Virus record (IMG/VR): IMGVR_UViG_3300032313_000500
Coordinates: 32,001-96,000 of that record
Direction: 5' to 3' (one strand)
DNA from: a virus
DNA: 64,000 nt
Part shown: in pieces, positions 2-37,600 of the stretch
How positions within the stretch are numbered: the stretch's first letter is position 1
How the letters are laid out: the number at the start of each line of letters is the position of its first letter
Program-made: the position numbers and the translations under genes
Notes under the pieces: model-generated
What the model saw: the letters and a program-made list of their open reading frames with translations, nothing else
Told to the model about the DNA's origin: nothing
Databases searched by the model: none

Positions 2-3000
2 GGCGAAGATTACGAAAAGTCAGCCTTTGACGAAGAACTAGAAAATCTTGCTCAAATTCTTGATGAGACATTTGATGTAAAAGTTGGAAGAACTCTTAGT
101 TCTCGCAACATGTCAAAACTAAAAACTGTCCTAGAGACACTTCAGGATATTGTTTCATCAGCAGAAAAAGATGTTGAGTCAAAAAGCGATTACATCATTC
201 CTGTCAAACTGGAAAATGCGTTTGAGACCAAGCAGTTACTTGACCCAATTTTTGATTACCACAGAGTTGAATCTCATGTGACAGAAGACGGAATAGTCAT
301 CACAACAGGGGTAACTCAAGAATTTATAGAGGCCATTGGCGTGGCCGAAAAAGCCTTGGGGCGAACGCTGAGCGGTGGCCTGGGAAAATTAGGCCGCGCC
401 GGTAGGGGCGCGGTAAACTTTGACCCAAAAGCATGGGACGGTGACGGAGACGGAATCGTACAAGAAGGAACACCGTACTCACGTCCAGCAATACCTGGAG
501 TAAATGACCGCGCATCTGGCGGAAGAGTTGATGCCACTGCTGCAACCCGTGCATGGCAAAATCAACGCAGAGCCGGAATGGCATCACGTACTGGCCGTAT
601 GGATGCAGATGACAACTTTGACGAATACGACGAAGCAATGGGTCCACCAATGCGTCGTGCAGGTAGAGGAATGGCTGAAGACCCAACTGGCGACGCTGCT
701 TCAGAAAACCTTGATAGGGACAGAAACGCTGGCGCTGTAAGAAGAGGATTGAGTTCAAGCACACCAAAGCCTCGTAAAAAGTCAACCGATTACAAAAAAG
801 ACAAAAACTACACAGACCTTGACGATGACGACAAGAAAATTGTAGACGTAATTCAAGAAGCAATAGAAAACGGCGAGATAACGGGTGAAAGTTATTGGTC
901 GGATTGGGTGAGTAATACTCTTGGTGACTGGAGTCTGCAAGAACAGTACGAGGCTATTTATGGCAGGTCTGCTACTAGTGAAGACTTTCAAGAATCTGCC
1001 GACCAAAGCGGCAGTCGGTACAGAGATGGTGAAGGAAGATATGATGACGACATTGAGGAAGAATTCTATTCCGAATCAATAGCGGATGCATCCCCTCGTG
1101 AGAAACTAATAGGGCTAGTTGGAGAATACATGCCTGAGGGTTCAAAGTATGGCGACAAAAAGCACATTGCTGCACTTCGTCAATCTTTTTCTTCTGGAAG
1201 AAGCGGACTCAGTTCAAGCACTTCAGGTTCTAGAGGAAAACCGGAGCCGTTAAAGCGCGAGGGCGAATTTCACGGTGGGAATATCTACGACGAATTCAAT
1301 GGTCAATATGTTGAAGGTGAAGTAGTTGCTTTATCCGACCTTTATGGCGACGACAGACCAGGGTATGGAATAGTTGGTAGATACGACAGCGACGGAAGTG
1401 GCACTGTTGATTATTTCTACGGCGGAACGGACGACGAAGAATTTGAAACCATTGAGGATGCTATAGCGTTCTTGGAAAATGTTGAAAACGAAGCAGAAAA
1501 CGACAGATTCTATAACGAACCTGAATTTAGAAGCGTAGACCGTAAGCGTTCTGCTGGTAGACCTGGCGAAAGACCACTTGCAGGGTTTTCATCAAGCACC
1601 GCAGAGGTTGTGTCAAAAGATGACTTGCCAAAAGAACTTGTAAACGACGTAGCAAATGCTGCAGTTCGCGCCGTGGGCCGTAGTGGTGACGAGACACGAC
1701 TTATTGATGGGGCTAAAGAAGTATTGGCAAACCTTACTAGCGAAAAATTAAAAGACAGCGTCGGTAAGTCTATATCCAATGCAAGAAAACGATTAGCAGA
1801 AATGCTTTCTGACGAAAAAGTCATTGAAGAATTTCAGTCAAGAAAAGCAATTGAAGATTTTATGGACGAAGTGGGCTATGCCGTTCAAGAGATGCTTGAT
1901 TTACATGTTGGTTCTGTTAAAAAAAATGGAACCTCTGTTGAAAAAGAAGAAATTGAAGAAATTGTAGATAATGCAAAATCTAAATTTGATAATGATTTTA
2001 ATGAATTAGTTAAAGCGTCTAAAGAGTTTTGGAACAAGAGACGTAAGCCCGGCAGATTAGATGGCACTCCAGAAGAAGCAAAAAAAGAAGCAGCAATAGA
2101 TAGAAAAAATTTGATGGAAACCCTCAGGGAGGGTGGAGAGCCAGAAGACCTTGAATCAACGCTTGGTTCAATTTTTAAAATGTTTGATAATGATTCTGAA
2201 AAAATAATTTCCGGAACAATTTCTGTTGAAGATTTAAACTATCTAACAGAAAAAGCACTTGACCAAATTATTGAAAACGACCCATCAATTGACCCAGAAG
2301 AATTAGTAAACGAATTTGCTGAGGCTCTCCGTGAGGGAGCATCCAAGGATGGTGCAAACCCACTGATTGTTGCTTTAGCAAAAGAATTTGGCGATGAAAA
2401 GATTACTGGTGGCGACCTAATTGACTACCTGAATGACACTCGTCAAAATTCTGTTTACAGACCCGACAGAGGCAAGATTGAAAAAGAAAAACTTCGTGGC
2501 TTTGCTTCCAGGGTAGGCAATAACGACCCTGCCAACACTGGAGACGGAGAACGTGGTCTTGGTTCTTCATCCGATAAGCGTGAAATGGACATGACGCTTG
2601 CTGAATATGCAGAACTAGATAAAGTTCTTAAGAAATACATGGATGACAGCCAAGTAGACGGCATCGGTGCTGACGAAGACATGCAAGTAATTCAGGATAT
2701 TCTTGACAAACTTGATGAGAGTTCAGCCGCAAACGACTCAATTCCTCTTACGGACAAAGAAATTGACGACTACATGGACACTCTCACAAGAATGAGAGAC
2801 AACGGTCCAGTTGAAGATTTAGCAGATAAAGAATCAATAGACAAACTGATTGACTCCTTAAAGAAAACAAAAGAATCAACAGACGGAACCTACGAATCAG
2901 ATGCTCTTCAGCAGGCCGGAACAAGGCTCACTCCTCCTCCTGGCGGTCGTGGAAGAACCACAAAAGGCACTCGCCCATTCAAGAGTTCCAACGGAACAAT

Positions 3001-5890: not shown

Positions 5891-5999
5891 ATAGTGTGCG
5901 TTCTCGCCCAGAGGGGCGTGCTACGTTATACTTTTATAAACTATTCATAATGTGATATTGACACTCGTGTCTTTACTCGCTAAAAAACAGGAGTTACCA

Positions 6000-7376
6000 A
6001 TGAGCGAAAAAGTTGAAGTCAGTGTTGATGCGGACGGCAATGTTCTTAAGTGCGCTAAGGGCGCAAATGCTGCCGATTGCGGGTTTACACCAGGGGCAAA
6101 AGTTTGTGGCAAGTGCGGAGCAATGCCTATTCAGATGAAGATGGTCCCAGTCACTGATGATGACTATGAAGTCAAGGGTGGCGATAACTGGGACGACAGC
6201 GCCATGTTTAACGCTATGAAAAAGCGTCAAAAGGGCATGGGTATGGGTATGCCTGACGAAGAAGACGAAGAAGAAATGCCAATGAAGGGTATGGGCTACG
6301 AAGAAGAAGACGACGAAGAAGACGACTTAGTTCCCATGAAAACTTCAAAGAAGAAGATGTCTCTTGAAATTGAAGAAGACGACGAAGAAGAAGACGACGA
6401 AGACGAGTTGTCCATGGACGGAGAAGTTGACCTAGAGGCAGCAAGAAAGAAGCGCCTTGCCAGCATGGGTGAAAAAGTTGCAGAACTCGGCAGAAATGCA
6501 TACATGTGTGCTGTTGAAAGAAAAGTTTACCCAGGTGGTTCAAGCGTTTGTGACGACTGCCCTGGTGGGTGTTTGCCAGAGCGCGGAATGCCAGGACTTC
6601 TTTCAGTTGAAGGAATTGCTGAACAAATGTTTCAGGGCAAGGTTCTTGACTCTGGATACTCTTCAGATGCAGACATGTTCGTAGTTGACATTCAATCAAA
6701 GAGCGGCCGTGCCGTTGAAGTATTTATTGACGGTACAACTGCAGAAGTTCTTGGTTTCCACAAACTTGACGACAACGCTTTTGAGCAAAAGTCAGCACTT
6801 GATTCAATGATGGTTATTGACTTCCATGAAGCAGCAGAAATTGCTGTTAAGTCTATTCAGGGTGACGTTGTTGCAGTTGAGCCAGACATTTTTGAAGGCT
6901 TTGATGCATACGCAGTTGAGATTGAAGGTCTTGATGGAAAGTCATACGATGTGTTTGTCTCTCTTGACGGTGAAGTTCTTGGATACGATAAGTACGAGCC
7001 AGAAGAAGCAGAAGCAATTGAAGCAGAAGCCGCAGAAATTGCATTAAAGCGTGCATTCAATGAAGACATGCGTACACAAATGGCGCAAGAAGGAAAAGCA
7101 CTTCCAGACGGCTCTTTCCCAATCTCCAACGTAGAAGACCTAAAGAACGCAATCAGCGCTTATGGTCGTGCAGGCGATAAAGAGGCAGCAAAAAAGCACA
7201 TCATGAAGCAAGCAAAGGCTCTCGGTCAGGAAAAACTAATTCCTGCTAACTGGGTAACTGGTGGAGCAAAAGTTGTTGAAGAGAAGTCCGGAGAAGTTGA
7301 CTCTGACCTTATGGCATCACTCGTTGAGTTTGAACTCCTTGAGGCCGAGGTTAAAGACGCAGACCCAACAATCTAG
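6000..7376 (+). CDS. Acidic head/scaffold-like protein with Cys clusters, two PepSY-like repeats and a C-terminal LPDGSFPI domain
   Basis: GGAG RBS before ATG6000. Contains CAKG..CG..CGKCG and CAVERK..CDDCPGGC, poly-E/D tracts, PepSY-like AAEIAVKSIQGDVVAVE...YAVEIEGLDGKSYDVFVSLDGEVL, and a C-terminal ALPDGSFPI...AISAYGRA...HIMKQAKALG motif seen in phage head proteins. Confidence 0.55.
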   Translation: MSEKVEVSVDADGNVLKCAKGANAADCGFTPGAKVCGKCGAMPIQMKMVPVTDDDYEVKGGDNWDDSAMFNAMKKRQKGMGMGMPDEEDEEEMPMKGMGYEEEDDEEDDLVPMKTSKKKMSLEIEEDDEEEDDEDELSMDGEVDLEAARKKRLASMGEKVAELGRNAYMCAVERKVYPGGSSVCDDCPGGCLPERGMPGLLSVEGIAEQMFQGKVLDSGYSSDADMFVVDIQSKSGRAVEVFIDGTTAEVLGFHKLDDNAFEQKSALDSMMVIDFHEAAEIAVKSIQGDVVAVEPDIFEGFDAYAVEIEGLDGKSYDVFVSLDGEVLGYDKYEPEEAEAIEAEAAEIALKRAFNEDMRTQMAQEGKALPDGSFPISNVEDLKNAISAYGRAGDKEAAKKHIMKQAKALGQEKLIPANWVTGGAKVVEEKSGEVDSDLMASLVEFELLEAEVKDADPTI

Positions 7377-7392: not shown

Positions 7393-10300
7393 ATGACGGG
7401 GGTGAACATTAATAAAATTCGCCATTACGCGCCTGGATTCAATAATAGAACAACGCGTCTTGATGCGGATATGTCTGCATTGCTTTTCAAGGCGGGAACA
7501 AGAGTTATTTCATCATCGGAAAGACTAATAGCCGACGTCTCTATTAAGGCAGCAATGGGTGCAGGTGCTCCTGCCGATGATAAAAAAAGAGGCCTTCAAA
7601 GCGCTGGTAAATCAAAGTACATAAACATCAACGGTCTTGTTTATGACCCAGCAGCAAAAAAACAAGAAGGTCAATTCTTTAAACCGTGGATTACGGAAAG
7701 AGAAAGAATTAATGCCATGCGCTCAAGCGACCCAGTTCCCAACTGGGGATGGGTTGATGCGCATCCAGAGCATCAAAATAAACTTGAAGCGCCAAGGAAT
7801 TCAAAAGGCAAAGTAACAAGATATCCAGTAAATCCTAAAACTGGTGAGCCAATGAAGAACCAGGGGTTTGACCAAGAGTTCAAATCTCTTGGACCAACGC
7901 TTGGTGAAAGAAATCCTGGCGGAAAACTGCTTGCACGAACAGCAAAGGCCTTTGGTTTAGTAGTTGATGCTCTTGGAAAATTCAGATGCCCTCCCGGCAC
8001 TCCAGCAGCAAACAGGTTTACAAACGAAAGAGGCGAAGGCTGTTTTGATATTTCAGTAGCCCAAGTACGTAATTTGGTTGGTTCTTTAGCCGACTCAATG
8101 CAGGGACCGCAGAACAGGTCACAAATAGTGTCATCTCTTGCATCTGCGGGATTAAGTATTGCTGAAATTAGAAAGTCCTACAAAGAAAATGGTATTGCCG
8201 GACTAGCAAGCCTCGCACGGCGTGTAGGCATTGATTACGTCGGTGAAAAATGGAACGACATGTCATATGTTTCACAAATACCAGTAAGACTAAGAGAAAT
8301 TTCTGGCTTGACAATGGGCGCTCAGTCAAGAATGGAAAGAATTGTTCAGGAAAAGGCTGCAACAATTGATTTTCTTGCAGAATATTACGGCATAACGGAA
8401 ACTGATGAATATAAAAAAATTGGTGAAATAGTCAAAGCGATGTCTGCCGACCCGGACTCGCCTTTAGCACCAAATCAATTTGAACTTTTGTTTAGAGGTG
8501 GCACTCCAGAAAGTCATGAAGACTGGGCAATTGATGCGCTAATTGAAACACACATTGAGGCAATTAACCAAAAACTTGGACTTGGAGGAACTCCTGATGT
8601 AATTAGGAGAGACCCAGTAATGATGGCAAGAGTTGCTGCAGATGCAAAAGAAGAGTATCTGCGAGCAAAGGCCGCTGGCGAAGTAACGCCAATTACTCAA
8701 TTCATTGATGCTGGTTTGAGAAGAGAAAAAGATTTTAGACTCGGAGCGTTTGAGGATATGGTAATCGCCGCACATGAGCGACCTCATTCTTTCACCATGC
8801 CGAATGGAAGTAAAAGAACATACGTAGCAGATGTTGGTGCCGGATATCAATACGATAAAAATGGAGAGGCTTGGCCTGACACTATTTTAATCAACTCCGG
8901 ACCTGCTCTTCTTGGATTTAGAGATACTCCACCTGCTGGATACATGGACCTATACGAAGCAACAGGCGGAGATATTGACGACCAGTGGAGGGCAGTTGCT
9001 TCAGCAATGGATGCAGACGAGCGCCTCAGAGCATATGCAACGCTATGGGGTACCGACTTGGCGGCAACTGAAGGTCGTGGATGGAGAGATTTTGGAGCAC
9101 AAACCTCTGCTCATGAAAGAGCCCACTGGGGTCAAATGGATGCAATTTTCCAGTATCACGCAGATAACGGAACCGGAAGAAATATAGAAGACTTAAACAA
9201 CGATGAACTGATGGATTTAACTAAAGAATTCATGACAAAAGCATCACCAGAAATATTGAGTGACGTTTTTGGTATTGATATTGATGATTTAATTGATAAG
9301 CGTTTTGACGCTCTTGCTGGTGCTTATAGCCAAGTGAAGCAACAAGAGGCGCTTGGTGAATTGACGGGAGGAGGAACTTCTGAAGAATTTAACTATGCCA
9401 GAACTCTTGCGTTAATGGAGACGCTTGCGGAATTAAAGGCAAATAAAGCAGTCGGCCTAATAGGCGACGACCCGGAGTTGGATGCAATTCTTGAAAAAAT
9501 GGACCCACTACCACCTTTGACTGGTGGCTCAATATCCCCATCGGGTGGAATTGTTCCATCAAGACCCGATGGTTCTCCTGCTCCTAGGTTCGTGCCGTCT
9601 GGCCGCGTTAGACCAACACTCCCTGGTTCGGCACCAGCGCTGCCAACCAATGCTGGAAGGGTGGTTACAACAACTCCAGGAAGAAGTGGCGGAAGAGGCC
9701 GACGAGGACCGGTTGACCCGTTTGAAAAGGAAAGATACGGAAAAGTCCCAACGATGATTAAAGAGGGGCGCTTTACCCTTGAAGACATTGACGAGTTCCT
9801 GTATGGAGAAGACGGCAAAGGTGGACTCAAGCGAATGCTTGAAAGTGTTGCAAACATGCGCACTAAAAAGAACGGCTACACCGACCCAGCATTGGTTAAA
9901 AGAAAACGTCTACTTAATGAACTAGTTGACACAATGGGTATTTCTTTTCCCGAACTTGAAGCACTAGCGCTTAAAGCAAAAAGAGGAGAGTCTTTAACTC
10001 CAGAAGAAAAGTCAAAACTTGTTGACGCTATTTCACATTTAAGAAACGGTGCAAATGAGTTTAAGGCAAAATCTATTGAAGCAAGAAAGAAATTTGAAGA
10101 CTATCGGTCTGTTGATGTATCCAGGGCAACTGGTGACGGTTCCGAATACGACGAAAAAGATACGAACGTATTAAATCTTGAACAAATACAAGACGAAATT
10201 GAAATGTATGAAGCACTGTTCAATAGGGTTGGGCGCGGAATAGCGCCAGCAGTGCATGACATTCTTACAATGACAGAGAATGGACCATACCCTCACCGCC

Positions 10301-16067: not shown

Positions 16068-19000
16068 AAAAAGTATCTACCCTATTTGATGCACTGCGTA
16101 ATGAAAAATTTGCTATTGCTATTCAAGATGATTATGGAGTCAAATACTATGGCTCCGAAGGCCAGGGAAAAGAATGGTCCGACTGGGCCAACTCTCTTAG
16201 CACCAAAACTATTGACGCAAACAATATTCCAGCAGGAATCATTCAGGGGCCCTACAAAAACATTAGCGAGCATTCCTTAAAGTCATTGCTGACTGCTTTT
16301 GGAAACAACATTAGCGAAATTGGCAACTCCTATACAGACTCCAAGTCATACTCTTACAAAAGTTCTGTAAAGATGGACAACGGTGCCCGTGTTCCAGCAG
16401 TAATGGATACACCAATTGGTCACTTTACCAAGTCCCAGTATTCAAGCGCTGTGAATTACAAGGGTCTTGCTATTCGCACCCAAATCAAAGAGGGAAGTTT
16501 TCTTTTTGAAGCAAGAGCAAACAATTACGCATTCAACTTTGACAACTGGATGTACAACTCAACCCCGTCAAAAGCCGAAATAAAGTCACTTCGTCACAGA
16601 ATTGACACAAACGTAGGTCGTTCTTCCGAAAGACGTCTGGGCATGAAATTTAAAGCCGCTCTTGTTGAAAGAGATGGACGCCACAGAGTTGGTTACGCGC
16701 AAACACTGGAAACCAAATCACTTGAAGACTCTCTTGAGTTGAAAGGAATTGGTCAAAGAATAGGTGGAGGAGCACGCATCGGCAGAAGAGCGGCTCGCAG
16801 TATGGCCATGTTTGACCCTAAAGCATGGGACGGCGATGGCGATGGCGTAGTGCAGGAAGGTACACCCTTTGAAAGACCTGCAATTCCCGGCATCAACGAC
16901 AGGGCAACTGGCGGTGCTGTTGACGCAGATGCTGCGAAGAAGGCATGGAAAGAATTTCAAAAGAATCCAGGCAGTTCAACGCCTTCTAGAGAGTTGAGTC
17001 CTGCACGCAGAGCCATGCGCGAAGGAAGCCGCTCAGTAGGAAGACAAGTTCTCACTAACCGTAAGCCAGCGGCAGCGGGTCGTAAATTACCTGACTCAAA
17101 ACCAATCAAGAGAAGCGGTCTTGCATCAAGATTGCCTGGCGACAAAAACGAAGCAGGAGTCAACCCACTAGTAGCAAAAGAAGTAGTTCGCAAAATAGAA
17201 GATGTTCTCTATAAACGAGACACATTAGATTCATTCAGTGCTTTCATTGATGGACTTGGTCCAGACGGTGGTCAGGAATTAAGTGCTGAACAAGTTTTTG
17301 ACATAAAAGAAGCAATCCAGTTGTACGACAATGAAGAATACGACATGGACGACCTTTACAGCAGTGTTTCAGCAGCCGTCACCAGAAAGAAGCCCGACGC
17401 TAAACCAAGTCAATCCGGAATGCGTTCACGTGTTGGTAAAGCACAAATGGACAGACAAGTTAATGGTCTCGCATCACGAAGTGGTCGTTCTAAGAAAAAA
17501 TCAAAACTGAAAGCAGTACCAGGACTTGACAAGGTTGACGAACGAGATGGTTCCCTATGGGCGTCTTTGACACCAGAACAGCAAGAAGTTGTAAAGAAAA
17601 ATACTCAAACAGCATATGAAAGACTTCAGACATCCATCAAAAAAGACAAGTATCTCAGCACGTGGTGGGATGAATTTTTACGTCTTCCTCGCAAAAAGGG
17701 AGCAACAGACGCTGACGGTAATGAGTGGTCTGAGCAATCAAGAATTGCTGGAGAGGCATTCACTTCTTTTGAAGTAGCAATAAACAGGTCAATTGACGGC
17801 GCAAATTCAGAAATACAAGCCGACGAGAGAGCGCTTGCAGCAATGAGACCTACAGGGTCTGATGCTGAAATTAAAAAAGCAGAAAACAGAATTGCAAATA
17901 AGAAGAAACAGGTTCAAAGAATTCAAAAAATTCTAGACGACCTTAAAACGTACGACCAAATGGACAAAGCCGATGACTGGTCGCTTCTTGAACACCTTCA
18001 CCCAGAACAAAGAAAGAAATCTTTCGGTACTGGATTGCAAAAAGATGAAATAAATCTGATTGTTAGCCCTTTTGCTGATGGAAAACTTCCAAAGGGAATG
18101 AAAGTTGGAGAACCATCAACAATTTTTGAAGAAATTGGTGGAGTTAAAAGAGCAAAGCCTCGTATTATCGGAGAAAAAGGTGATGCAAAACTTGCAGACT
18201 TTGCAGACAGAATTCTTCGCCCCAACCCAGTAAGGGCGGAAAGAAGAAGACTACGAAAGGCCGGAAAAGGTAAGACGTTCACAGAAGAATCGCCACGCGA
18301 AAAAATCTCAAAAGTTAAAAGAAGAATTTCTAAAGCAAAACGTCAAGTACAAAGCAAGATTCGTGGAAAGCGCAATCCAGAGAATATTGAAAGCGCTTTG
18401 GAAAAAGTCAGGAAACGTAACACTCCACTTATCGGCAGAGACAAAGACGACAATCCGGTTATCTCTCGCGAAACAATTGAGGGTTTTGCAAAACTGCTAA
18501 GAGGATACAAGCCTTCGGAAAAAAGAACCAAAGATGGAGCGACCAAAGGTAAGAACGCCGACTCGTTCCTTGGACAAATCTGGGACTCACAAAACTTCTC
18601 TGCACTTCCTACAGCGATAACTGAAGAAGAGGCCAGGGAACTAATATCTTTAGGATGGACACCAATTCAACGTGGGCATGGAGGAACAACACCCTCCCAG
18701 GCAGCCTCATGGGCGGAAGATTATATTTACGACCCTAGAAGATTTATTACTGGAGAAGGTGGACAAGCAGTAGGCCCTGGAGAATACTGGGCCCACCCTG
18801 AGAGCACCGGATGGGACAGTTGGATTAGAGGTCAATCTTCAAACACTGCAACACTTGCTTTCTTGCCACCTAACTCAAAAGTCCTAACGGAAGCGCAAGC
18901 GTCAAAACTTCAACAGGACGGCAATAGTATTGCAAACGCAATCGGTGGATACATAACTGGTGCTGGTAGTGGTGGAAAAGCGGAAGAACTTGACCCACAA

Positions 19001-19690: not shown

Positions 19691-22600
19691 GTGGAAAGCG
19701 AACTCAGAAGTCAAATTGCTGCCGTAAGGCGAGCAGCGGATATTGGATGTTTTGGTGCGCACCAAATTTCAAACGGTGAATGGCTGCCCTGTTCTTCAAC
19801 AAAACAATTTCTGACAATTACTAACGGTTTTGATGTCAAGTCAAGAATTTCACTTGACGACATGGAGAACTGGTCTTCAATCAGAAAATCAAAAGGAAAA
19901 AAGCGAAAGAAGCGTTGGGAAAAACTTCGTGAGCGCAGAATACTTGGAATTGAATCTCTGGAAGGCGGCGGTCTTGTTTCTCCAAGAAACTCAACAAACA
20001 TGATTAATGGTGGCACAAATCCACCAATCACGCATGGTGCTTCAAGTCCTTCGGGTATGTCTACTAAGAGCATTCAGCCCGCATTCATGCCTAGAGACAA
20101 CGACCCTGACGTGTTTGTTGATATTGAATCAGCAAGAAAAAGAGCGCAGCAACTTGGCTGTATCGGTGTAAGCAGAAGAATGTCAAAAGGTGGAAAGGTT
20201 ATATGGATGCCATGTACAAATATCACCGACTACAACAATCTGACCGGAATGACTTCTCTTGGAAGAACAAATCTTCAAAAAAGAAATGAAAAAATAATTA
20301 GAACCGTAATAAAAGAAAATCTTAAAAAGAAAAAAACAACTATTCAAGAAGATATTTACGGCAAGGCTCTCGGTCCAAGAATTAGAGGAATAGCCCGAGC
20401 AGCAGTTTCAAGGTTTGACGCAAATGCTTTTGACGGAGACGAAGACGGCTTAATCCAAGACGGAACCACGTTTGAGAGACCAAGCATTCCAACTCCATCC
20501 ATACCAAAACCCGCAGACAGAGAAGCCACACCAAAAACTGTAGACAGAGAAGTTTCAGCATCAGAAGTTTCTGCAGTACGCAAATTCATGAGCGCCATGA
20601 CTTCTTCGCAAATGGATTCTTTCAGAGGTGAACCAATTGAAGCGTACGACGGAGTTCCTGGGTCAAGGCGTGGAATGGCATCCAGTGGTCCTGGATTCAT
20701 TATCGGTCGCGGTCCAAAACCAGTAAGCGGAAGAAAGACACCAAAGCCTTTATCCATAGCGGAACTGAGAAACCCAGAAGCAAGTCCAACCAACCCATTT
20801 AGAAATCTCGGTGGAAGACTGATGGGCAAATTGATTAGGGGAATGGTCAAGCCTGAACATAGAAACAAACAAGATAGAACGACTTTCCTCATTGGTGGAA
20901 ATACTGGTTCGGGTAAAACAACCGTACTTGACGGACATTTAATACCAAAAGGCCTAGTCCCCTCACACGAGGAAGCCGCGCTCATTGACCCTGACTTCAT
21001 CAAGAAAGGTCTTGTTGGATACAACGACGGGGATGGTGCTGGTCGTGTTCATAGAGAGTCTCAAGCAGCAACTGACAAGACAATTAGGGATGCCGCTTCT
21101 GACCAAATGGACATGGTAATCACAGGTTCTGGTGCGTCAAGACAAATTCAACACATGCGTGAAGCGTCTGAGCGTGGAGAAAAGGTAGTCGGACACTGGG
21201 TGCACGTTCCACAACAGGAAGCATCTAGGAGAATTAAAAAAAGAATGGATGAAACCAATAGGTACATCCCAGACAACACAGCCCATATGGCTCAGAGTAT
21301 TCCTAAAGTTATTTCAACAGGATTTGAAGAAGACTTACTGGATGAGTTCTACCTATGGGACAACGACGTACCCGAAGGTAAAGAGCCAAAACTTATTGCA
21401 AAAAAAGTTCGTGGCAAAAAGTTTGAAATATACGACGCTAAAAAATTTGAAGAATTTGCCGGAAGTAAAAAGTGGGCAGACACCTGGGTTGCAACATCTG
21501 AAGGAAAAGATTCAGACAATGACAGCGCATCTGTACAGATGAGTAAAAATAGAAGCGGAAATCCTGCAAACAGAGGCGGGAGTGGACGTGTCACGCCTCC
21601 CAAAAACCCGCGAACCCCAATACCTAGCACAGGACAAGGCTCTCCCTTGGACCTAACTCCGTACTCACCGCCATCAAGAGAAAATTCTGTAAAAAAAACA
21701 TTAATAGGAAAAATTCAAAAAATTATACCGCGTGTTCAATTTGAGGGAGTACTTAGAATAGCATCGCGTATTCCAAAGGGAATGCCTCTTTATGAAGAAA
21801 CTGACGACAATCAAATTAAAATAAATTTAAAATCTTTGCAAATTAATCTTGACACTCCTCAGGATATTTTGAAAGCAGTTGATACCTACGCTCCACTCAA
21901 AGCAGACAACGAATCAATGGAGGATTTTGCAGCAAGAATTATTCAAACTATTCCGGCTATGAGGTGGGCGGTTGGGTCCAGTGGTCCAGGAGGAGCAAAA
22001 AGACTTGCAGACATATTAACTCAATCTGGATTCAGTAATAATTCTCAAGAAAAAGTAAGAGAAATACTAAAGAAAAATTTAGAAAATCCATCATTTGCTG
22101 AATTAGTAAAAATACACGGAATGCCATTGATTGTAAACGGTGACACATTATTTACAACAAACGAAAAACTAGCAGCAGGAGGGACGGATGCTTTTCATAC
22201 TGCAGGTTATGGGTTTATCCTCATGTCTGATTCTCTTCTACGGGAAGGAAAGTCGTATTCTCTTGGCTGGACCGAGGAAACCCCCCTTTACAATTATGTT
22301 GGAGAAACAATGCGTCACGAGTGGTTTCACTACTTAGATGGAATAATGAACGCAATGGACCCTGTTGCGAGAAACAATAGAATACAAAAGTACATGAAAA
22401 GTGTAAATGATTTTCTTTCAGACCCTCAGGCTCGTTTTGAAAAAGCGCTAGGAACTCCAGAAGAAATGATTAAAGAAGCAGAGTCAATAGCAGTAAGAAG
22501 TATTGCTTTTGCTCAAGGAAAATCAAAACGTGATGCCATAAGGTATTTAAGGAATAGGAAAGACAAAGATTATTTGGCTTTAATGGATTTAGCCATTGGA

Positions 22601-23256: not shown

Positions 23257-24615
23257 ATGTCAGACCAAGCAAGACTTACAGAATTGCAATCCGCCCTTCG
23301 CGCCAAGATGGCCGATAACAAGGCAATTGCAGACTCATTCCGCATTGAAGAAGGAACCGTTGTTGTCAACGCTCAGCAAAAGAGCGCATTTGATAAGAAC
23401 ATGACCGACATCAAGGAAATCAAGGGACTCATTGAGGGCCTTGAGGCAATGAACACCGTTGACCAATGGGGCTCACAGGCTCCAGCAGAATCAGTTGCTG
23501 CTGCTGCAGCCGCTGGCTACTCTCTCAAGAGCGTCTACGGCTCACAGAGCATCGGTGACCTCTTCCTCGCTTCACCAGAGTTCAAGACCCTTTTGGGTGG
23601 CAAGAATGGCGCAAACATGCCTTCCCCATTCCAACTCGGAGCATCACTCACCACTCATGGCGCATTCAGCGTTAAGGACGTTTACTCGGCACTTCCATCA
23701 GGCACATTGGGCCGTGGTGCAGATGCTCAGTTCGGTTCAATCCAGCGTGACCCAATGGTCATGTCACCACAGCGTGTAAAGCGCGTTCGTGACTTGTTCC
23801 CAAGCCGCACCACAACTGCTGCAGTTATTGAATACTTCCGTATGCTCGGTTTCACCGCAACAGGCGGCGGAGTCAACAATGCAGGAACAGTTGCTGAGCG
23901 TAACGCCGGAAACACAAACTTTGCTGCCAAGCCACAGTCCTCAATGGTATTTGAAGGCCACCAGGCCCCAGTACGTACCATTGCTCACTGGGAAGCAGCA
24001 CACCGTAACGTCCTCGCAGACGAGCCACAGTTGCGTTCAATCATTGACAACGAATTGATGTACGGTCTCCGTCTTCAAGAAGATGCTCAAATCCTCAACG
24101 GTGATGGCTCTGGCGAAAACCTTACTGGTGTTCTTCAGACTTCCGGTATCCAGAACTACTCATGGTCCAGCGGTTTGTACTCAGCAACTGCAGGAATGTC
24201 AGACACAAAGGCAGACGCAATCCGTCGCGCCGCTACTCTGTCGTTCTTGGCTTACTACGAGCCATCTGGTGTCGTTCTTCACCCGAACGATTGGGAAGAC
24301 ATTGAGTTGACCAAGGATGGCAATGGCCAGTACCTCGTTGCAGTTTCGGTTGCAATGGGTGGCGAGCCAAAGGTATGGCGTTTGCCGGTCGTTGAGACTC
24401 CTGCAATCCCAGAAGGCACCGCACTTGTCGGCGCATTCGGTACGGGCGCACAGTTGTATGACCGTGAGCAGGCTTCAATCCGCATCTCAGAGCAGCACTC
24501 GGACTTCTTCGTTCGCAACGCAATCGTTGTACTCGCAGAACAGCGCCTCGCCCTTGCGGTTAAGCGCCCAGAGTCATTCGTCAAAGTTACATTTGACAAC
24601 GCTCCAGCAGCCTAA
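23257..24615 (+). CDS. Major capsid protein, HK97 fold, with N-terminal coiled-coil delta domain
   Basis: Strong CAGGAG RBS; HWEAAHRNVLADEPQLRSIIDNELMYGLRLQEDAQILNGDGSGENLTG, VLHPNDW, FVRNAIVVLAEQRLALAVKRPESFV; followed by a terminator. Confidence 0.95.
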   Translation: MSDQARLTELQSALRAKMADNKAIADSFRIEEGTVVVNAQQKSAFDKNMTDIKEIKGLIEGLEAMNTVDQWGSQAPAESVAAAAAAGYSLKSVYGSQSIGDLFLASPEFKTLLGGKNGANMPSPFQLGASLTTHGAFSVKDVYSALPSGTLGRGADAQFGSIQRDPMVMSPQRVKRVRDLFPSRTTTAAVIEYFRMLGFTATGGGVNNAGTVAERNAGNTNFAAKPQSSMVFEGHQAPVRTIAHWEAAHRNVLADEPQLRSIIDNELMYGLRLQEDAQILNGDGSGENLTGVLQTSGIQNYSWSSGLYSATAGMSDTKADAIRRAATLSFLAYYEPSGVVLHPNDWEDIELTKDGNGQYLVAVSVAMGGEPKVWRLPVVETPAIPEGTALVGAFGTGAQLYDREQASIRISEQHSDFFVRNAIVVLAEQRLALAVKRPESFVKVTFDNAPAA

Positions 24616-25173: not shown

Positions 25174-25436
25174 TAATCAAGCCCGGCACCGACCCTGAAC
25201 AGGCTGCAAAAATAAGGGCTTCAATTAATAAACTCCATCAAGAGATTGAAGACTTCCTTACACTTTCTGACACTATTGAGTCAGAAAACCCCACGGGGGA
25301 CGCATGGAAGGCAGTGTGGGGACACGAAAATCCTGCTTTTGATGAGAACACAAAAGAAAGCCACGAACTAAAAGCAAGCATAGCAAAAATGCACGGCATG
25401 GACATTGGTGCCCAAAAACAAATTGAGGCAGAGTGA
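25170..25436 (+). CDS. Hypothetical protein (88 aa)
   Basis: GTGA overlap with the upstream stop; coupled to the downstream gene. Confidence 0.55.
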   Translation: MIIKPGTDPEQAAKIRASINKLHQEIEDFLTLSDTIESENPTGDAWKAVWGHENPAFDENTKESHELKASIAKMHGMDIGAQKQIEAE

Positions 25437-26224: not shown

Positions 26225-26673
26225 CTACATGGGGCGAATACAAGGGCGAGATAAAAGGTTTTAGGTTTGAAACAAAAGCAGACAAGAAATGCCCTCCAGC
26301 AACACAGGACATTTCGGTAAACATAAAGAACCGTCAAAAGGCAATCAAGTCTGCGGCATATGGTCCTTTAAACCCTAAAGAGACAAACGATAAATTTTGG
26401 CAAGAAAAAGCAGACAGATGGGACGTCTCTATCCCCTCAGCAAAAAAGCAGAAGTGTGGAAACTGTATTCTCTTCGTACGCTCGCCAAGAATCCTTGACT
26501 GCATTGAGACAGGACTCGGGAACGAGTCTGGCGCAGCGTGGGACGTAATTGAAGCAGGAAAGATTGGATACTGCGAAGCGTTTGACTTCAAGTGCCATGC
26601 CGAACGAACATGCGATGCATGGGTCGTAGGTGGACCAACCGTAACGGACAACGACAGTCGGAAACCAGACTAA
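26221..26673 (+). CDS. Cys-rich protein with HiPIP-like C-terminal motif
   Basis: KCGNCILF...GYCEAFDFKCHAERTCDAW; N-terminal EYK-GEIK-GF and ETK-AD sites. Confidence 0.55.
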   Translation: MTTWGEYKGEIKGFRFETKADKKCPPATQDISVNIKNRQKAIKSAAYGPLNPKETNDKFWQEKADRWDVSIPSAKKQKCGNCILFVRSPRILDCIETGLGNESGAAWDVIEAGKIGYCEAFDFKCHAERTCDAWVVGGPTVTDNDSRKPD

Positions 26674-27077
26674 TGACGAACGAAAGATTCTGGTACGGAG
26701 CAACCCTGTTAAAAGTTATTGATGGTGACACAATTGAACTCATGATTGACCTTGGTTTCAATATCCATCACAAGATTCGTGTTCGTCTTTATGGGGTAAA
26801 TACGCCAGAATCACGCACAAAAGACCTTGCTGAAAAAGAAATGGGCCTAAAGGCTAAGAGTTTCACCCAAGACTGGCTTACTAATCACAAGTGGGTATTC
26901 GTTAATACCATCCCCGATAAGAACGACAAATACGGGCGTATTTTGGCTCGTATTTTTTCTTCGGACGATATTGATGACCCAACTACTGCTTGTCTTAATA
27001 AAGACATAATCCAGTCTGGCTACGCCCGTGAATACTTCGGCGTTGGCGATAAGACTTGGACTGAGTTTAAGAAATAA
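26673..27077 (+). CDS. Thermonuclease (SNase-like) family nuclease
   Basis: KVIDGDTIELMIDLGF...RVRLYGVNTPESR...DKYGRILA; TAATG overlap start. Confidence 0.85.
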   Translation: MTNERFWYGATLLKVIDGDTIELMIDLGFNIHHKIRVRLYGVNTPESRTKDLAEKEMGLKAKSFTQDWLTNHKWVFVNTIPDKNDKYGRILARIFSSDDIDDPTTACLNKDIIQSGYAREYFGVGDKTWTEFKK

Positions 27078-27112
27078 AAAACCCCGCCCCAATTAAGGAG
27101 CGGGAGTTTTTT
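27077..27112. terminator. Bidirectional terminator between convergent genes
   Basis: AAAAACCCCGCCCC-AATT-AAGGAGCGGGAGTTTTTT with A/T tails on both sides. Confidence 0.75.
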
Positions 27113-27136
27113 AATAAGTTTTTAGACTGTTAGTTT

Positions 27137-27763
27137 TTAGACTGTGGTTCCATCCCAGTCAAGAGGAGCACCTGCATCGGAACTTGCCTGAACTGTAATT
27201 ACTACACCAAGGTTTGCACCAGCAACGGTTGAACCAACCTGAGTCACTGCTACGGTCACCAATTGACCTGCAGCAAATGCGGCGGGTGAAGCAGACGTCG
27301 CTGTTGCGCTTGCGCCTGCAGCAACTGCTGCTGACGATACGTTTGGCTTTGTTCTGACATATCCGAATGTTGTGGTTGAGGCAACTGCACTGATTACATA
27401 TGTTCCATCAAATGGCGCACCTACGTTATCTACGGTCACTGTGTCGCCCACTGCGTAACCATGAACTGCTGAAGTTGTAAGGGTTGCAACGTTTGATGTG
27501 AGTGCCTTGTTTGTGATGGTGAATGCACCAGTGCTGAGGGTGAAGTCTCCGCTTGTTCCTGAGGCGGCGATTGAGAGTCTTCCCAAAACTCCGTCATTGG
27601 CAACAAGGGTGGCGGTAAGAGCCGCACCCGTAGGGGCGGTACCTACGGCAGCAGTTGCTCCCGTAACGTATCCCTTGAATGGCATACGAAACACGGCAGT
27701 GCTGGAAGTGGCGAGTGTACCTGTGATGTTGGCACTAAGAATTGCTGGTGTGCTAATTGACAT
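27137..27763 (-). CDS. Ala/Thr/Val/Gly-rich beta-structured protein; probable virion decoration/fibre-like protein
   Basis: TITNKALTSNVATLTTSAVHGYAVGDTVTV...FDGTYVISAV is a beta module seen in phage structural proteins; GGAG RBS. Confidence 0.45.
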   Translation of the reverse strand: MSISTPAILSANITGTLATSSTAVFRMPFKGYVTGATAAVGTAPTGAALTATLVANDGVLGRLSIAASGTSGDFTLSTGAFTITNKALTSNVATLTTSAVHGYAVGDTVTVDNVGAPFDGTYVISAVASTTTFGYVRTKPNVSSAAVAAGASATATSASPAAFAAGQLVTVAVTQVGSTVAGANLGVVITVQASSDAGAPLDWDGTTV

Positions 27764-27841
27764 TTATGTCTCCTTGGAGTTGTTGGCGCTAATGCCCTTG
27801 TTCTAAATAATACATCAGACTGTGGCTTGGCGTAGCAATAA

Positions 27842-29884
27842 TTACTGGTTGTCTTTAATAAATTTTATTTCGCATGAATCCGTTGTGCAGTAAGACTCCC
27901 CGATTGCATCGGCAGCCATTCCTGCATATACGCCCGTGAAGTCAATAGGAAATAATGATTTACCTGCCTCTTCATAGACGCTCTGCTCTATCTGTGTGTA
28001 CGGCATTTGCGGATAGGTGAAGTTTCCTTGGGGCAAGAACGACACAGTCTTTAATTGACCGTCATACATGTGGAGTACGGTGCCGATGTGTTCTTTTTCT
28101 TTCTCTGCGTCAAAGGAAATCGTAACTGACACCGAGTTGTCCGACCAGTAGCGTTGTGCAACTGCTGCTAGTGACATCTTTTCAAAGATTGTTACGTCCT
28201 TTTCGGAGCGACGTGCGTCTGACTTGATTGGGAAGAACACAACAGAGGTCGTCTCAGGCGATTCAGAGGCAGGCTCAACTCTGTAGTTGGCCATCTTGAA
28301 CAGCGGAAGCATTGGGTCGTCGTTAGAGAACCGGATTGCTCTGTCAAAATACTCACCACCTGGAGTCCAATGAACCCCAGGAGACTCGCCGGCGAGAATT
28401 GAAACAGTTCCCGAAGGCTTTACTGTTGTCATCTTGATTGATTCACGAATTCCAAGCCACTCAGAGTAAGAAACGTCATAATTCTTTACTGTGTTGTACC
28501 CAGTGTCCATCCATTCACGAAGAACTGGCATTCCTACACGGTCAGCGAAGTTAGCAACACCGGACATTGAAGTACCGATGCGACGATTGCGTTGCATGAT
28601 TGCGTTTGTCTCTTCCCAGTGGGTAGGAAGAAGCGTTACGGTCTTTGCGTAGAGATATGCAAACTTCAAGGTTCGCTTGTAGTCATCTAATGAATCGTGA
28701 CGATTGAGGTATGTCTCCACGAGAGTACAGCACTCATATGACTCAAGAGATTGTTCTGCACATGGGTTATATCCAGCAACACGCCAGTCTTTGTTGTTTG
28801 CAGGGTCTGCAAGACGGCCGTATTTACGAGACATATCAAGCCAGATGACTCCTGGCTCTCCATTGAGAGCGATTCCGTCAACAATCTTGGAAAGGTCTTT
28901 ACCTACAGAAGTTTCTACAGAGTTGTTGGACATCCAACCCCAACCGAGAGATTCTGGGTCGTACGAGTTGCGCGCAGGAAACACTGACGAGTTCTTTAGG
29001 TTAAGGAACTCATCGTCATCCAAACTGCCAATTAGTAATTCTGCAGAACGACGTACGTTTCCAGAAACAACACAAACACCAATCATGTTTCCGATGTCTG
29101 CGATATCAACTTTTGTAACTAATTGACCATTGCGGTTTTTAAACATTTTTCTAATGTAGTTGTGCAGTCGCTCTAACGAAGCGTGACCAGCAGCCGTACC
29201 ACCAAAAGTTTTAATAGGTGTTCCTGCAGGGCGAATTAGTGAATAATCAAAGACGATTGGTGCCTGGTCCTGCTTTAAGTAAGAGTTAATCAACATACTC
29301 ACAGATGTAACCCAACCTTCTCGGCTGTCTTCAATTACTTCAGTAACTACTGGTTTTGTTGGCTCATAGATAGTGAAATCTTTTTCTGCACCCTTGTTGT
29401 CAAATCCAACACCGACACCAAGCATTGATGCTTCCATAAGAAACGCAAAAGGCTTTGCAGGGTTGTTCTTTGTCATTTCAGATGTTGATACAAATGCACA
29501 GTTCTGTAATGCAGCAGAGTTTTTCTGAACATTGACTAACGGAGTCCCCATAACCCACAAGCCACGACCAGGTGGAGTCCACTTCAGGTTAAACAAACGG
29601 TCAAACGCTTCTTTTGCAGATGCTTGTGCTTTGGAGTCATTCCAGGGTAGACGATTTGTTTTGCAGTGGTCTTTCTGCAGGGAGTACATACCGTTGATTA
29701 CGCGTTCACAAACATCTGACCATGTTTCTTTTGTTCCGTCTTCTTTTAAGCGCGAATAAGTACGCAAAAAAGTTATTTCTCCTACAGAGTTACCACCGGC
29801 ATCAACATAACCAAATGGTGCTTTTCTAGTTCTGTACGAACTAATAAAATCTTCTGATAAACGGAATGTGAAAAATGAAGACAC
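27842..29884 (-). CDS. nrdJ: Class II (adenosylcobalamin-dependent) ribonucleotide reductase, monomeric RTPR type
   Basis: FLRTYSR, WTPPGRGLW, ALQNC, GNVRRSAE, YNPCAEQSLESYECC, TTVKPSGT, C-terminal CTTDSC. Confidence 0.93.
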   Translation of the reverse strand: MSSFFTFRLSEDFISSYRTRKAPFGYVDAGGNSVGEITFLRTYSRLKEDGTKETWSDVCERVINGMYSLQKDHCKTNRLPWNDSKAQASAKEAFDRLFNLKWTPPGRGLWVMGTPLVNVQKNSAALQNCAFVSTSEMTKNNPAKPFAFLMEASMLGVGVGFDNKGAEKDFTIYEPTKPVVTEVIEDSREGWVTSVSMLINSYLKQDQAPIVFDYSLIRPAGTPIKTFGGTAAGHASLERLHNYIRKMFKNRNGQLVTKVDIADIGNMIGVCVVSGNVRRSAELLIGSLDDDEFLNLKNSSVFPARNSYDPESLGWGWMSNNSVETSVGKDLSKIVDGIALNGEPGVIWLDMSRKYGRLADPANNKDWRVAGYNPCAEQSLESYECCTLVETYLNRHDSLDDYKRTLKFAYLYAKTVTLLPTHWEETNAIMQRNRRIGTSMSGVANFADRVGMPVLREWMDTGYNTVKNYDVSYSEWLGIRESIKMTTVKPSGTVSILAGESPGVHWTPGGEYFDRAIRFSNDDPMLPLFKMANYRVEPASESPETTSVVFFPIKSDARRSEKDVTIFEKMSLAAVAQRYWSDNSVSVTISFDAEKEKEHIGTVLHMYDGQLKTVSFLPQGNFTYPQMPYTQIEQSVYEEAGKSLFPIDFTGVYAGMAADAIGESYCTTDSCEIKFIKDNQ

Positions 29885-32290: not shown

Positions 32291-32291
32291 G

Positions 32292-34344: not shown

Positions 34345-34403
34345 CGAACACATGTACGACGAACACCTGTACGCACGAACACATGTACGACGAACACATG
34401 TAC
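34345..34403 (+). repeat. Four tandem 15-16 bp repeats resembling SOS boxes or iterons
   Basis: CGAACACATGTACGA, CGAACACCTGTACGCA, CGAACACATGTACGA, CGAACACATGTAC; compare CGAAC-N4-GTTCG. Confidence 0.8.
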
Positions 34404-34607
34404 CCATCACATAAACACTTGACAAAACATTACGAAAGTGCTAGTCAATACACATCACATGACGTTATACCTGATTGTAGATAATGCCTCATGACCCACA
34501 CAAAAGTGCTCCTCACAAGCACACTTTTACACATCACATAAGTCGCATCAAACTATTAGTTACACACACTTCACACACCACACAGTGAGGTGTTCTACAA
34601 TGAGTCA

Positions 34608-37600
34608 ATGCCTTTCTCTTATGACATAGAACCAAATGACTCACCACGTCTAAGGCGTCACATGTCAAGAGTAAATAGTGATGACAGACTAGAAGTCAAA
34701 GCACTAGGTCCGAACCTAGGGCAACTCGCACGAAGCGCACAGGTCTTTGACCCTAACGCATACGACGGTGACGGTGATGGTGTAGTACAAGACGGCACAC
34801 CCTTTGAGAGACCAGCAGTGTTGTCTAACATTGCCTCAGTAGCACGAGGACTCGCAAGCACCACGGGTGGCTACGGGTCATACACACCAAGAGGTTCGTG
34901 GACAGTAGGTCTCACCAATGAACAGGTAGCAGAGAGGGCAGTGCCTAGCACGCCTGCTGCTTTCGTTGAGATGATGGTCGCTCAACAAGGCTCCACGGGT
35001 AACCTATCTGACAGTGTGCAGAAGGCACTAGACATAGCAATCTTTGACGAGGAGAGGGTCGCTGAACTACGTGACACATTGCGTAACGCACTAGACGAAA
35101 GACCTGAACTACGAGCAGCCTTTGATAGGTTCGGTTGCCCACCCATAGGTGTACACCCCAACAAAGACGAGGATGGAGAAGGTATTGGATATGGAGGTAT
35201 CGCTTATGGTAAGCAAGCAATCTTCATAACAGAAAAGACACTAGACAAAGGCGCTATGTCAGAATGGTTTGGTAGAAGGAAGTTCTCTGCGAAAGTATTC
35301 TCCTTCACTACATTCGCACCAAGAGTAAAAGGTGTTGACCGTGCCTTCACAGGGGAATCAGCAGAAGACATCATCACCCATGAGTGGGGTCACTACCTCA
35401 ATCACCTAGTAGCAGACATAGCACCAGACCCAGAACTGCGTGAGTTAGCAGGAGCCCTAGGGCAAGGCTCTTGGTACATGTCAACTTACTTCACTCGCAT
35501 TCCTCCAAAAGTGAAGAGGATGTTTGAGTACTTTGATGGAGCCATGAAGAGTGGTGAGAAGGTAGACCAACCAGTTGGTGTTCCATTCGTCAAGAGCGTG
35601 TATGGCACCTCAATGCCATGTGAGTTCTTCGCAGAATCAGTAGCAGCATACTTCTCCCCTCGTCGTAAGAGTAGAGAACTACTCAACGATGAAGGAATAG
35701 AAATAGTTGAACAAATGCTTGGCATTAGAGGAGCATCTCGCAGTGGATTCGCATCACGAACAGGTTCTCTAAAAAGCAGTACGGGTAGTACCCTGCGTGG
35801 TAAGACACCACAAGAGATAGCAGACATTGTAGTACCCAAGACAAAAGCAGAAGCAATCGCATTGTCTGACGCACACAACGCTTTACTTACAGACCCAGAT
35901 GGTGTTCGTTACACGGCATCAGAACCAGACAAACTAAAAATAATTATCCCCAAGGGTATTGACGCTATGGACTTCTCACCCGAAGCAGTGTCTCGTATGA
36001 AAGAGATGGTCGTAGAAGCACTCTCAAATAACCCTGAGTTCCATGAAGCAGTACAAAGATTTGGTATGCCACCTGTTCTGATAACAAAGCCAGGCGAAAG
36101 ACTGGATGGGGCGTACGCCATTGCTGGTGTAGAGGGTTTCCCTGCTATCACTATTGACTCAACAATGAGAGAACAAGCATTGGCCAAAGGGTGGTGGCCT
36201 AATGGTATTTACGAAGATGAACCATTCATCAAAGGGACAGAGGGCTTCTCTACAAGTCCCACGAGTGAAGGATTCTTTATTCATGAATGGGCTCACTACC
36301 TCAATCGCCTAGCATTAGACATACACCCAGACGAAGAGATGAGAGAATTAGCACGCTTTTGGTGGAACGACACTTGGATACTAAATGCAGCCATTCCTAG
36401 GCTTACGAGATTTCTAAGGGGATTAGGTAAACCAAAAACACGAATAGATGCTAGATACAGGGGCGCTGATAAATTCTATTGGGCAACACGTGACAACAAA
36501 TCCGTTGACTTTACGGGTTACCCACACGTAAAGACACAGTATGGACAGTCACAACCAGCAGAAGCGTTTGCCGAAGCAGTAGCAGCAGTACTCTCCAAAG
36601 ATGTTGACGACAAAGAGTTGGTCAGTCCTGAAATGCGTAGAGATGTTCTTGACATGCTTGGTTTCTCACCTTCGGTCAAAGAGATAGACAGAGCAGGCAG
36701 TTCAGAGGGTAGAGGTAGTGGGTTTGCCTCAAAGACTGTCACCAGAGGACCTGATGGCACGAGAATTATTAACACATCTGACCCTTTCACACCGTTGAGT
36801 GGTTCTGATTGGCTAAAAGACGCTACGGATGACGAGGTAGCAGATGCTGTAACGCCTACGAGTATTGATGACGCAATAGCGCTTACGATAATGAATACGT
36901 CATACGGGGACGACCCAGCAAATTACCCAGCAGAAGAAGCAAAAGTACGTCAAATAATGACGGACCACATCTTCAAGTTTTACGGTAGGGACAGCAATGG
37001 GCAAATAGCAACAGACGCAAACGGGAAGCCCATTAGTTTCTCTGTTCCTTACGATTTTTCTCCACAAGGCAGACAAACAGTCAAAGACATGGTCAAAAGA
37101 ATGATGGCAGAGTCGCCAGAATTCTCATGGATGATTAGACGCTTCGGGTGTCCACCAATGATGGTTATAGACGAAGCAAAACTCACCCAACTAAACAATC
37201 AGGTTGAACAAATGCGTCTTGCTGGTCAAGACATCTCTCTTCCGTTCCATCTCGCAAACGGAGCAGTCGGTGGTTTTTCGGTAGGTACTTACGGGATAAC
37301 ACTCAGGCCTGACCCCACAACAGACAACTTACCAATGGGATTTTACAGAGGGTTGGCAGCAAAAAGAAAGACTGGAAGGATAATCACAAATCCTGACGGA
37401 AGCAGGGAAGAAGAAAAAGAACACTGGATGAACAACTTCGGACTATCCCTAGCCGATAAGGCTATTCACGAATGGGCTCACTGGTTCTACGCAACCGTAA
37501 AAGGAAACAAAGGACTACTAGGTAAGTCACGCAGGGGAGATAGAAAATCTCGTCTTTCCTACTTGTTCCCTGGTATTCCTATGGCAGATGCTGAGAAAAT

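Follow-up and report, generated by a model that had tools for sequence, protein, structure and literature searches.

Why should four large proteins of one phage, unrelated along most of their length, carry the same short peptide a short way after a putative protease site? The question is raised by a window of 64,000 nucleotides, positions 32001-96000 of a 118,470-bp uncultured viral contig (IMG/VR record IMGVR_UViG_3300032313_000500); the genome-wide scans reported here covered all 118,470 bp. An earlier note on this DNA had singled out a DxDxDG-containing peptide (here the tag) at window positions 419, 16811, 20414 and 34746 and had taken it for a candidate capsid-targeting or packaging signal. 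All four peptides were found there, each on the plus strand. The answer that we tentatively favour is that the four copies are one conserved module of ~50-70 residues, which acts as a processing-coupled handle on proteins loaded into the head.

One module in four giant proteins

A six-frame scan of the whole genome detected exactly these four copies and no more. When a broader profile was run against the open reading frames (ORFs) of the genome, the four copies scored E-values of 6e-30 to 3e-20, and the next best ORF reached only E 0.7. The proteins had been described as otherwise unrelated, and indeed BLAST among them detects this module alone, with alignments that start at a lysine upstream of the tag or a few residues before it. 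The parts that precede the module have nothing in common: in genome order they are a protease, a domain of no known family, a pair of DUF3721 domains and a stretch of 36 residues. Between copies 1 and 2, 37 of 46 residues agree, the figure given in the earlier note, and the same codon is used at only 9 of the 23 identical tag residues. A recent duplication or gene conversion of the DNA was rejected on this ground; the differing codons place the conservation at the protein level and point to selection on the peptide.

The position of the tag is as regular as its sequence. Upstream of each copy, at a distance of 16-23 amino acids (aa), stands a K-[AG]-[LI]-G site (hereafter the K-site), and the first G[FLM][AS]S motif follows 34-102 aa further downstream; both parts of this arrangement had been noted before and hold for all four. 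Lysine and tag fall at residues 445 and 468, 227 and 250, 239 and 256, and 37 and 53 of the respective proteins. The first of these pairs is counted from genome position 31018, the true start of the first ORF, which lies 982 bases upstream of the window and not at window position 110 as previously assigned. There is one tag per protein in this lineage, always at the entry point directly after the K-site. The gene with the fourth copy begins ~10 kb past the capsid gene and shares the strand of the head genes, in keeping with the proposal of a portable tag. The tag is also under strong selection.

In consensus the module opens with E-x-K-[A/S/G]-[L/I]-G; a spacer of 8-20 residues, rich in Gly and Arg, separates this from the tag, [FY]-[DN]-P-x-A-x-D-G-D-x-D-G-h-[VI]-Q-[ED]-G-T-x-[FWY]-x-R-P. 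Conservation was counted over 54 diverse tag copies, 44 relatives of the capsid protein and 45 orthologues of protein F, the second carrier. The three loop aspartates (D34, D36 and D38) and the final proline are invariant among the 54 copies, and near-invariance extends to D29, A32, G35, G39, Q42, G44, T45 and R49. Of the 61 invariant columns of protein F, 17 fall within the tag, the densest such cluster in the protein.

Structure prediction sets the tag apart from its surroundings. In a model of the whole of protein F the K-site and spacer are disordered (predicted local distance difference test, pLDDT, below 50), the tag forms an island of pLDDT 59-68, and 60 disordered residues follow. Folded alone (AlphaFold, 54-row alignment), the module acquires a helix at the spacer, which in this model is short, basic and amphipathic, and a compact loop at residues 31-60 (pLDDT 83-88) with a bridge between V40-V41 and R49-P50. 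The core of the tag is confidently predicted to be an isolated EF-hand-like loop that lies between disordered linkers and folds independently.

The DxDxDG stretch had been read as a known calcium-binding loop. As a pattern this stands: across the 54 sequences, loop positions 1, 3 and 5 are Asp, position 6 is Gly (nearly invariant) and position 8 is Val or Ile. Membership of the known families does not: the acid at canonical EF-hand position 12 is replaced by a nearly invariant Thr, the model has a loop and bridge where helix-loop-helix pairing would be expected, and the Pfam family Excalibur (PF05901) scores 12.3 and 15.1 bits (E 0.03-0.23), below its cut-off of 22, with Gln in place of Cys. 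Binding of a divalent metal by this knuckle may nevertheless reasonably be expected from the DxDxDG pattern. No Pfam family or PDB entry passes threshold for the tag. Its profile matched no PDB sequence at E<=10, its model matched nothing in the PDB at E<=10 by Foldseek and none of 48,161 chains at Z>=2 by VIA-align, and a search of the ESM Atlas gave no usable match; Foldseek with the whole protein F model returned nothing below E 0.8.

The K-site probably ties this loop to the head. The first carrier begins with an S78 prohead protease of ~180 residues (phrog_80, 4e-28; PF04586, 6e-12), which is followed by a linker, module copy 1 and ~1800 aa of cargo. This S78 protease, encoded beside the portal and capsid genes, has no separate gene, and the fusion is kept in all related IMG/VR contigs examined. 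The capsid protein is untagged and has a K-site of its own, EFK/TLLGG (residues 108-115, window 23578-23601), in which E108, F109, K110 and L112 are invariant among the 44 relatives. In phage HK97 the S78 protease gp4 cuts the capsid protein at K103/S104, and the mature chain starts S-L-G (PMC10275583). The cargo sites of the present phage are K/ALG, K/GIG and K/SLG; the candidate cut-site motif is common to capsid protein and cargo and resembles K103/S104-L-G of HK97.

The coupling extends well beyond this genome. Searches yielded 244 tagged proteins with 238 internal cores, and K[AGSTEK][LIFV][GP] was present within 45 aa upstream of 160 of these cores, against 0.07 expected; most of the remainder read E-x-K-[AS] by eye. 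The spacing between the lysine and the first core Asp varies within limits and clusters at two values, 22-23 and 29-30 residues. Within the genome, the pattern occurs in the capsid protein and other proteins of the head region, and in a candidate tape-measure-like protein; it was not found in the portal, sheath, terminase, ribonucleotide reductase, primase or helicase. The tag lies directly downstream of a site resembling that of the phage's own head protease. Judging from the motif, the Lys site is probably a head-protease site at which the tagged proteins would be cut.

Distribution among phages and cells

The profile of the four copies was run against 1.84 billion protein-cluster representatives and gave 611 matches at E<1e-3, of which 136 were at E<1e-10. 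Many matches fall in fixed positional classes that mirror the four proteins: protease fusions of 1.3-3.3 thousand aa with the tag at residues 395-576, F-like and Zeta_toxin-bearing G-like proteins with the tag at residues 205-280, and giants of 2-3.7 thousand aa with the tag at residues 23-80. Such a profile search, with a look for HK97-type head genes nearby, was the check that the earlier note had suggested. The comparison was made on the best 80 IMG/VR loci, and the head-gene layout was present in every one (80/80), in the order terminase, portal, protease-tag fusion, tagged F, tagged G, capsid gene. This order holds down to 57% portal identity.

By capsid protein, the nearest cultured relatives are the myoviruses Gordonia phage DalanDe and Brevibacterium phage Cantare (~48% identity). 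The head regions of both were examined and lack the tag, and neither a cultured relative bearing the tag nor a proteome was found. Megablast of the head region against phage records gave no match; nor did a tblastn search of 50,697 phage records with the tag as query, in which the low-complexity filter may hide one.

Other lineages use the core differently. A variant, EPYDPDA.DGDGDGIVQEGT.WERP.GT, forms the extreme N-terminus of large proteins and is repeated in their interior; some of these proteins adjoin an SNF2 helicase, as does protein I, the fourth carrier. A short form, DGDGDG.[IV][YF]DGT..ERP, which in most cases follows K-A or K-S at a distance of 5-10 residues, is interspersed in classical polyvalent proteins, with five copies in a portal-MuF-GNAT protein, four in an ART-PolyVal protein and four in a HipA/PI3K-like kinase protein. 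In a 41.8-kb IMG/VR contig (L132:434-17118) that encodes, in this order, a terminase, portal-InPase, ART-PolyVal, a 684-aa protein, an HDAC-like protein and a MuF-like protein, six cores were counted, two in the 2135-aa portal-InPase, three in the 1079-aa ART-PolyVal and one in the 684-aa protein. Here and in these other lineages the tag is found on head-associated proteins of cargo type (portal-InPase, portal-MuF-GNAT, ART-PolyVal). A search for related loci from two distant tagged proteins found none.

A T4-like IMG/VR contig (119.6 kb, 56% complete) whose protease is of the S77 family has a single tag (L133:6700-7389). It forms the C-terminal end of a small protein with a DUF7936 domain and an acidic Val-Glu-Pro repeat; the protein ends ..TLEEKIADGYNPDARDGDGDGIVQEGTKWERPVDTQM, and a Leu-x-Glu before the tag fits the cutting rule of T4 gp21. 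The idea that tagged proteins ride on one another's tags is disfavoured as a general rule, since this contig has one tag only at its 56% completeness.

In cellular genomes the tag is nearly absent. A scan of one genome per species across 185,579 prokaryote species gave three matches, all on short contigs of metagenome-assembled genomes (Acidimicrobiia, Actinobacteria and Rubrivivax). The module is almost only viral, and no prophage feature.

What the module may do

Polyvalent proteins are large, multi-domain and effector-like, are linked to portal, MuF or terminase genes, and are predicted to be packaged and injected (Iyer et al. 2017; PMC5512222). Protein G joins two DUF3721 domains, a Zeta_toxin P-loop and HEWFH in one chain, protein I has four HExxH motifs, and the first carrier is an S78 protease with cargo. 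The tagged proteins are encoded around the portal and capsid genes, and it is well supported that they are head cargo of the polyvalent kind. The module itself is conserved, portable and coupled to head-protease processing, and in several lineages it is linked with protease, portal and MuF modules. It most likely marks proteins that are loaded into the capsid; that the tag is what targets them there, as an address, we infer.

In the reading that we favour, the module would have three parts: E-x-K/[A/S/G]-[L/I]-G, at which the S78 prohead protease of the phage itself would cut; a helix that is short, basic and amphipathic; and a compact EF-hand-like knuckle of DxDxDG type. The knuckle, D-G-D-x-D-G-h-[VI]-Q-[ED]-G-T, is closed by a strand ..[FWY]-E-R-P, and a divalent cation probably sits in it. 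In this reading the tagged polyvalent, effector-like proteins would be built into the prohead, one of them fused to the protease itself. A cut at the lysine would then detach each unrelated N-terminal domain and place the tag ~20 residues from the new N-terminus, where it would be a common handle that recruits diverse cargo to the head interior or holds it there. Because the module is the sole feature common to the four proteins, it would have to be the signal if one common signal brings them to the head or keeps them in it. When the capsid protein was co-folded with the tag, from alignments of 44 and 54 rows and without controls, the score was 0.00, which speaks neither for nor against binding.

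Several observations weigh against a handle of this kind. Alignment with HK97 places the cut in the capsid protein at G149/T150-L-G, 40 residues after K110 and in an unconserved segment; motif and alignment disagree, and the capsid cut site is therefore ambiguous. K-sites without a tag occur in the capsid protein, in a fifth giant protein and in a 474-aa protein, and those of the capsid protein and the fifth giant indicate that the tag is needed neither for cleavage nor for general head entry. Several cores lie inside portal-fused proteins, where they are needless for addressing. The tag of the T4-like contig, being C-terminal, misfits a simple address label, and its protein stands outside the head module among auxiliary genes (2OG-Fe(II) oxygenase, thymidylate synthase and PhoH). 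Finally, the core is nearly identical in phages with differing capsid and protease types (S78 here, S77 in the T4-like contig), which suggests that the core binds something present everywhere, for instance a metal ion, and speaks against a protein partner particular to one lineage.

Alternatively, the core is only a metal-stabilised structural knuckle, a portable domain-boundary element of polyvalent proteins that rigidifies or protects the linker beside the processing site and has no addressing or retention role. Such a knuckle would be expected to sit in disordered linkers and fold by itself, as the core does, and to recur; the short form is repeated 3-6 times between the enzyme domains of polyvalent proteins of the portal-fused and ART types, which belong to the head in any case. 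A near-identical sequence in unrelated lineages also suits a universal ligand in the form of a metal ion. We nonetheless consider this rather unlikely, because in the present lineage each protein has a single copy, at the K-site entry, despite as many as ten other linkers, because the tag is better conserved than the domains of protein F, and because so strict a viral restriction would be unexpected of a plain spacer.

The metal could instead be the point of the device. The knuckle would then be a calcium-gated latch: loops loaded in the calcium of lake water would hold cargo together or against the shell, tag-to-tag contacts would possibly let proteins without an address of their own ride in with protease or portal fusions, and in the calcium-poor cytoplasm the loops would empty and unfold on ejection and release the effectors. 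If true, this would amount to a general, portable, ion-switched cargo handle of several phage lineages, but we regard it as distinctly improbable.

A slightly smaller chance is given to the tag being a docking exosite, in which the prohead protease would bind the knuckle and cut the lysine 16-30 residues upstream. The constrained distance between lysine and core would fit such docking, and one tag lies within the protease fusion itself. This explanation was downgraded on account of the untagged K-sites listed above and of the same core in a contig whose head protease is of the S77 (T4 gp21) type, a different family.

We hold it no more probable that the tag acts after ejection, as a calcium-sensitive element, either by attachment to the host envelope or by activation of the cargo once this has passed from the calcium-rich outside into the calcium-poor cytoplasm. 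The core does resemble DxDxDGxxCE, the loop of the extracellular Excalibur domain, the profile matches include one protein with genuine Excalibur-type repeats (P0046), and in some small proteins (L115, L119) the tag follows a hydrophobic segment. Against this, the Excalibur match is below the Pfam cut-off, no link of the tag to envelope-active domains was seen in this genome, and the tight coupling to the head-protease site suggests a role at the assembly stage.

The RTX protein FrpC contains a calcium-dependent module of ~170 residues that processes itself at Asp-Pro; that the present module cuts itself in this way at the conserved Asp-Pro or Asn-Pro before the metal loop is hardly credible, for although almost every copy of the long form has [DN]-P (D29) five residues ahead of the loop, the short form of polyvalent proteins has no Asp-Pro, the module is far smaller than that of FrpC and a PDB sequence search up to E 10 gave no match.

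Carriers, neighbouring genes and known systems

The carriers, the module copies and two further proteins of the head region are collected in Table 1. The G[FLM][AS]S motif is enriched in the giants, with 23 copies in the five of them (window 575-43314), or 2.39 per 1000 aa against 0.22 in the other genome ORFs of at least 150 aa, an 11-fold enrichment; eight lie in the cargo part of the protease fusion. If these motifs were also cut sites, the tag would leave as a peptide of 50-125 residues.

Table 1. Carriers of the module, module copies and related proteins (window coordinates unless stated otherwise)
Feature	Length	Position	Strand	Remarks
Protease fusion	2290 aa	2..5890 (C-terminal 1962 aa); genome 31018-37890	+	portal gene directly upstream
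Protein F	1098 aa	16064..19360	+	N-terminal domain of ~205 aa, disordered linker with module, then helical domains
Protein G	1083 aa	19649..22900	+	two DUF3721, module, Zeta_toxin/AAA_33-type P-loop domain, HEWFH; adjoins capsid gene, upstream
Protein I	3212 aa	34590..44228	+	ten G[FLM][AS]S, four HExxH (three HEW.H, one HELSH)
Fifth giant protein	1938 aa	7261..13077	+	EFK/SLGP..LART.A entry at 7882; RCPPG..RFT..C replaces DGDGDG tag
Major capsid protein, HK97 fold		23257..24615	+	PF05065 5e-43, PDB matches; N-terminal scaffold (delta) region of ~110-150 residues
Module copy 1		350..499	+	K/ALG site 350, Gly/Arg-rich spacer, tag FD..RPAIPG 419-499; conservation with copy 2 to 556
Module copy 2		16742..16891	+	K/GIG site 16742, tag 16811-16891
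Module copy 3		20363..20494	+	K/ALG site 20363, tag 20414-20494
Module copy 4		34698..34826	+	K/ALG site 34698, tag 34746-34826; phrog_7924 match on residues 49-76

Protein F matched no Pfam or PHROG family. In protein G the two DUF3721 mini-domains (C..G.H......PC, 19709-20200) lie upstream of the K-site, and a cut there would detach them. Zincin-like metallopeptidase signatures were seen at 35379, 36282, 37467 and 43836 in protein I and at 22316 (HEWFH) in protein G. Pfam does not recognise the HEW.H and HELSH motifs of these two proteins; by their letters they look like the zincin-type HExxH peptidase motifs that polyvalent proteins contain (PMC5512222).

In the fifth giant, RCPPGTPAANRFT...GC follows the K/SLGP..LART.A entry (7882-8050) at the place where the other giants have the DGDGDG loop, and from its sequence this Cys-containing segment looks like an alternative entry module. 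Between the protease fusion and the fifth giant, at 5952-7376, is encoded the very acidic 474-aa protein, with a weak PepSY match and K/ALGQ near its C-terminus, which could be a scaffold-like or internal protein.

Upstream of the window, the minus strand encodes a tail sheath, the candidate tape-measure-like protein, fibre genes and the large terminase, and the portal gene opens a plus-strand head block that extends into the window. On the 3' side of the capsid gene (25433-29884) come a DUF6321 protein, a staphylococcal-nuclease-like protein and then a ribonucleotide reductase of class II (B12-dependent), which is encoded on the minus strand, as are the primase-helicase and SNF2 helicase that follow. 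No tail genes lie 3' of the capsid gene; they are found upstream of the terminase, on the opposite strand.

To our knowledge, capsid-targeting peptides have been defined only in phages T4 and P1, and we know of little that explains how large passengers are loaded into heads of the HK97 type, which have no separate scaffolding core. If the module is an address or retention signal, it would be a means to load proteins into HK97-type capsids and a sequence marker for injected effectors in metagenomes. It is short and sharply defined, has no Pfam family or solved structure, and stands at the cargo entry point in several uncultured phage lineages.

The capsid-targeting sequence of T4, present on IPI-III and Alt, is an N-terminal leader that is cut off (Mullaney and Black 1996; PMC9024508), and P1 DarB has an N-terminal signal of 30 residues (PMC9024508). 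Like these signals, the tag is a short portable peptide on unrelated proteins, here ones that probably enter the head, and is coupled to a site, here a probable one, for the head protease. The analogy with T4 drawn in the earlier note fails on position, since the tags stand at residues 468, 250, 256 and 53 and not at the extreme N-terminus. Membership of the T4 family was rejected on this anatomy: the tag lies after the putative cut and would stay with the downstream fragment. There is no sequence similarity to the T4 and P1 signals, and the machinery differs, T4 having the S77 protease gp21 and a scaffolding core of gp22, the present phage an S78 protease (PF04586) and a scaffold region within its capsid protein.

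The phage shares with HK97 the protease family (PF04586), the capsid fold and a candidate cut site of the form Lys/small-Leu-Gly, which stands in both its capsid protein and its cargo. Duda, Oh and Hendrix are said to have reported in 2013 that HK97 gp4 has a C-terminal capsid-targeting tail, and the idea of a segment after the protease that takes it into the prohead applies equally here. Unlike in HK97, the protease heads a 2290-aa fusion, and the segment that follows it is common to three other proteins.

Relatives of the tag sit in ART-PolyVal, InPase-portal and MuF-portal polyvalent proteins. The main text of PMC5512222 mentions no calcium, EF-hand, DxD motif or linker element, and the module appears to be undescribed there. 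Unlike the polyvalent proteins described, those of the present phage are fused to an S78 prohead protease or arranged around it.

The calcium-binding loops of DxDxDG type include those of the EF-hand, Excalibur and dockerin, reportedly as surveyed by Rigden and Galperin in 2004. The tag agrees with the Excalibur loop DxDxDGxxCE in its three Asp residues (positions 1, 3 and 5), in the Gly of position 6, and in being hydrophobic at position 8 and acidic at position 10; a short beta-bridge is predicted at 7-8. Unlike the DxDxDG families, it has Thr at 12, Gln and not Cys at 9, and a single loop without a partner, and the flanking segments [FY][DN]P.A and GT..ERP are specific to it. Taken together, these comparisons describe a real, conserved and so far undescribed mini-domain at the entry point of head cargo, a new form of the known idea of a cargo tag.

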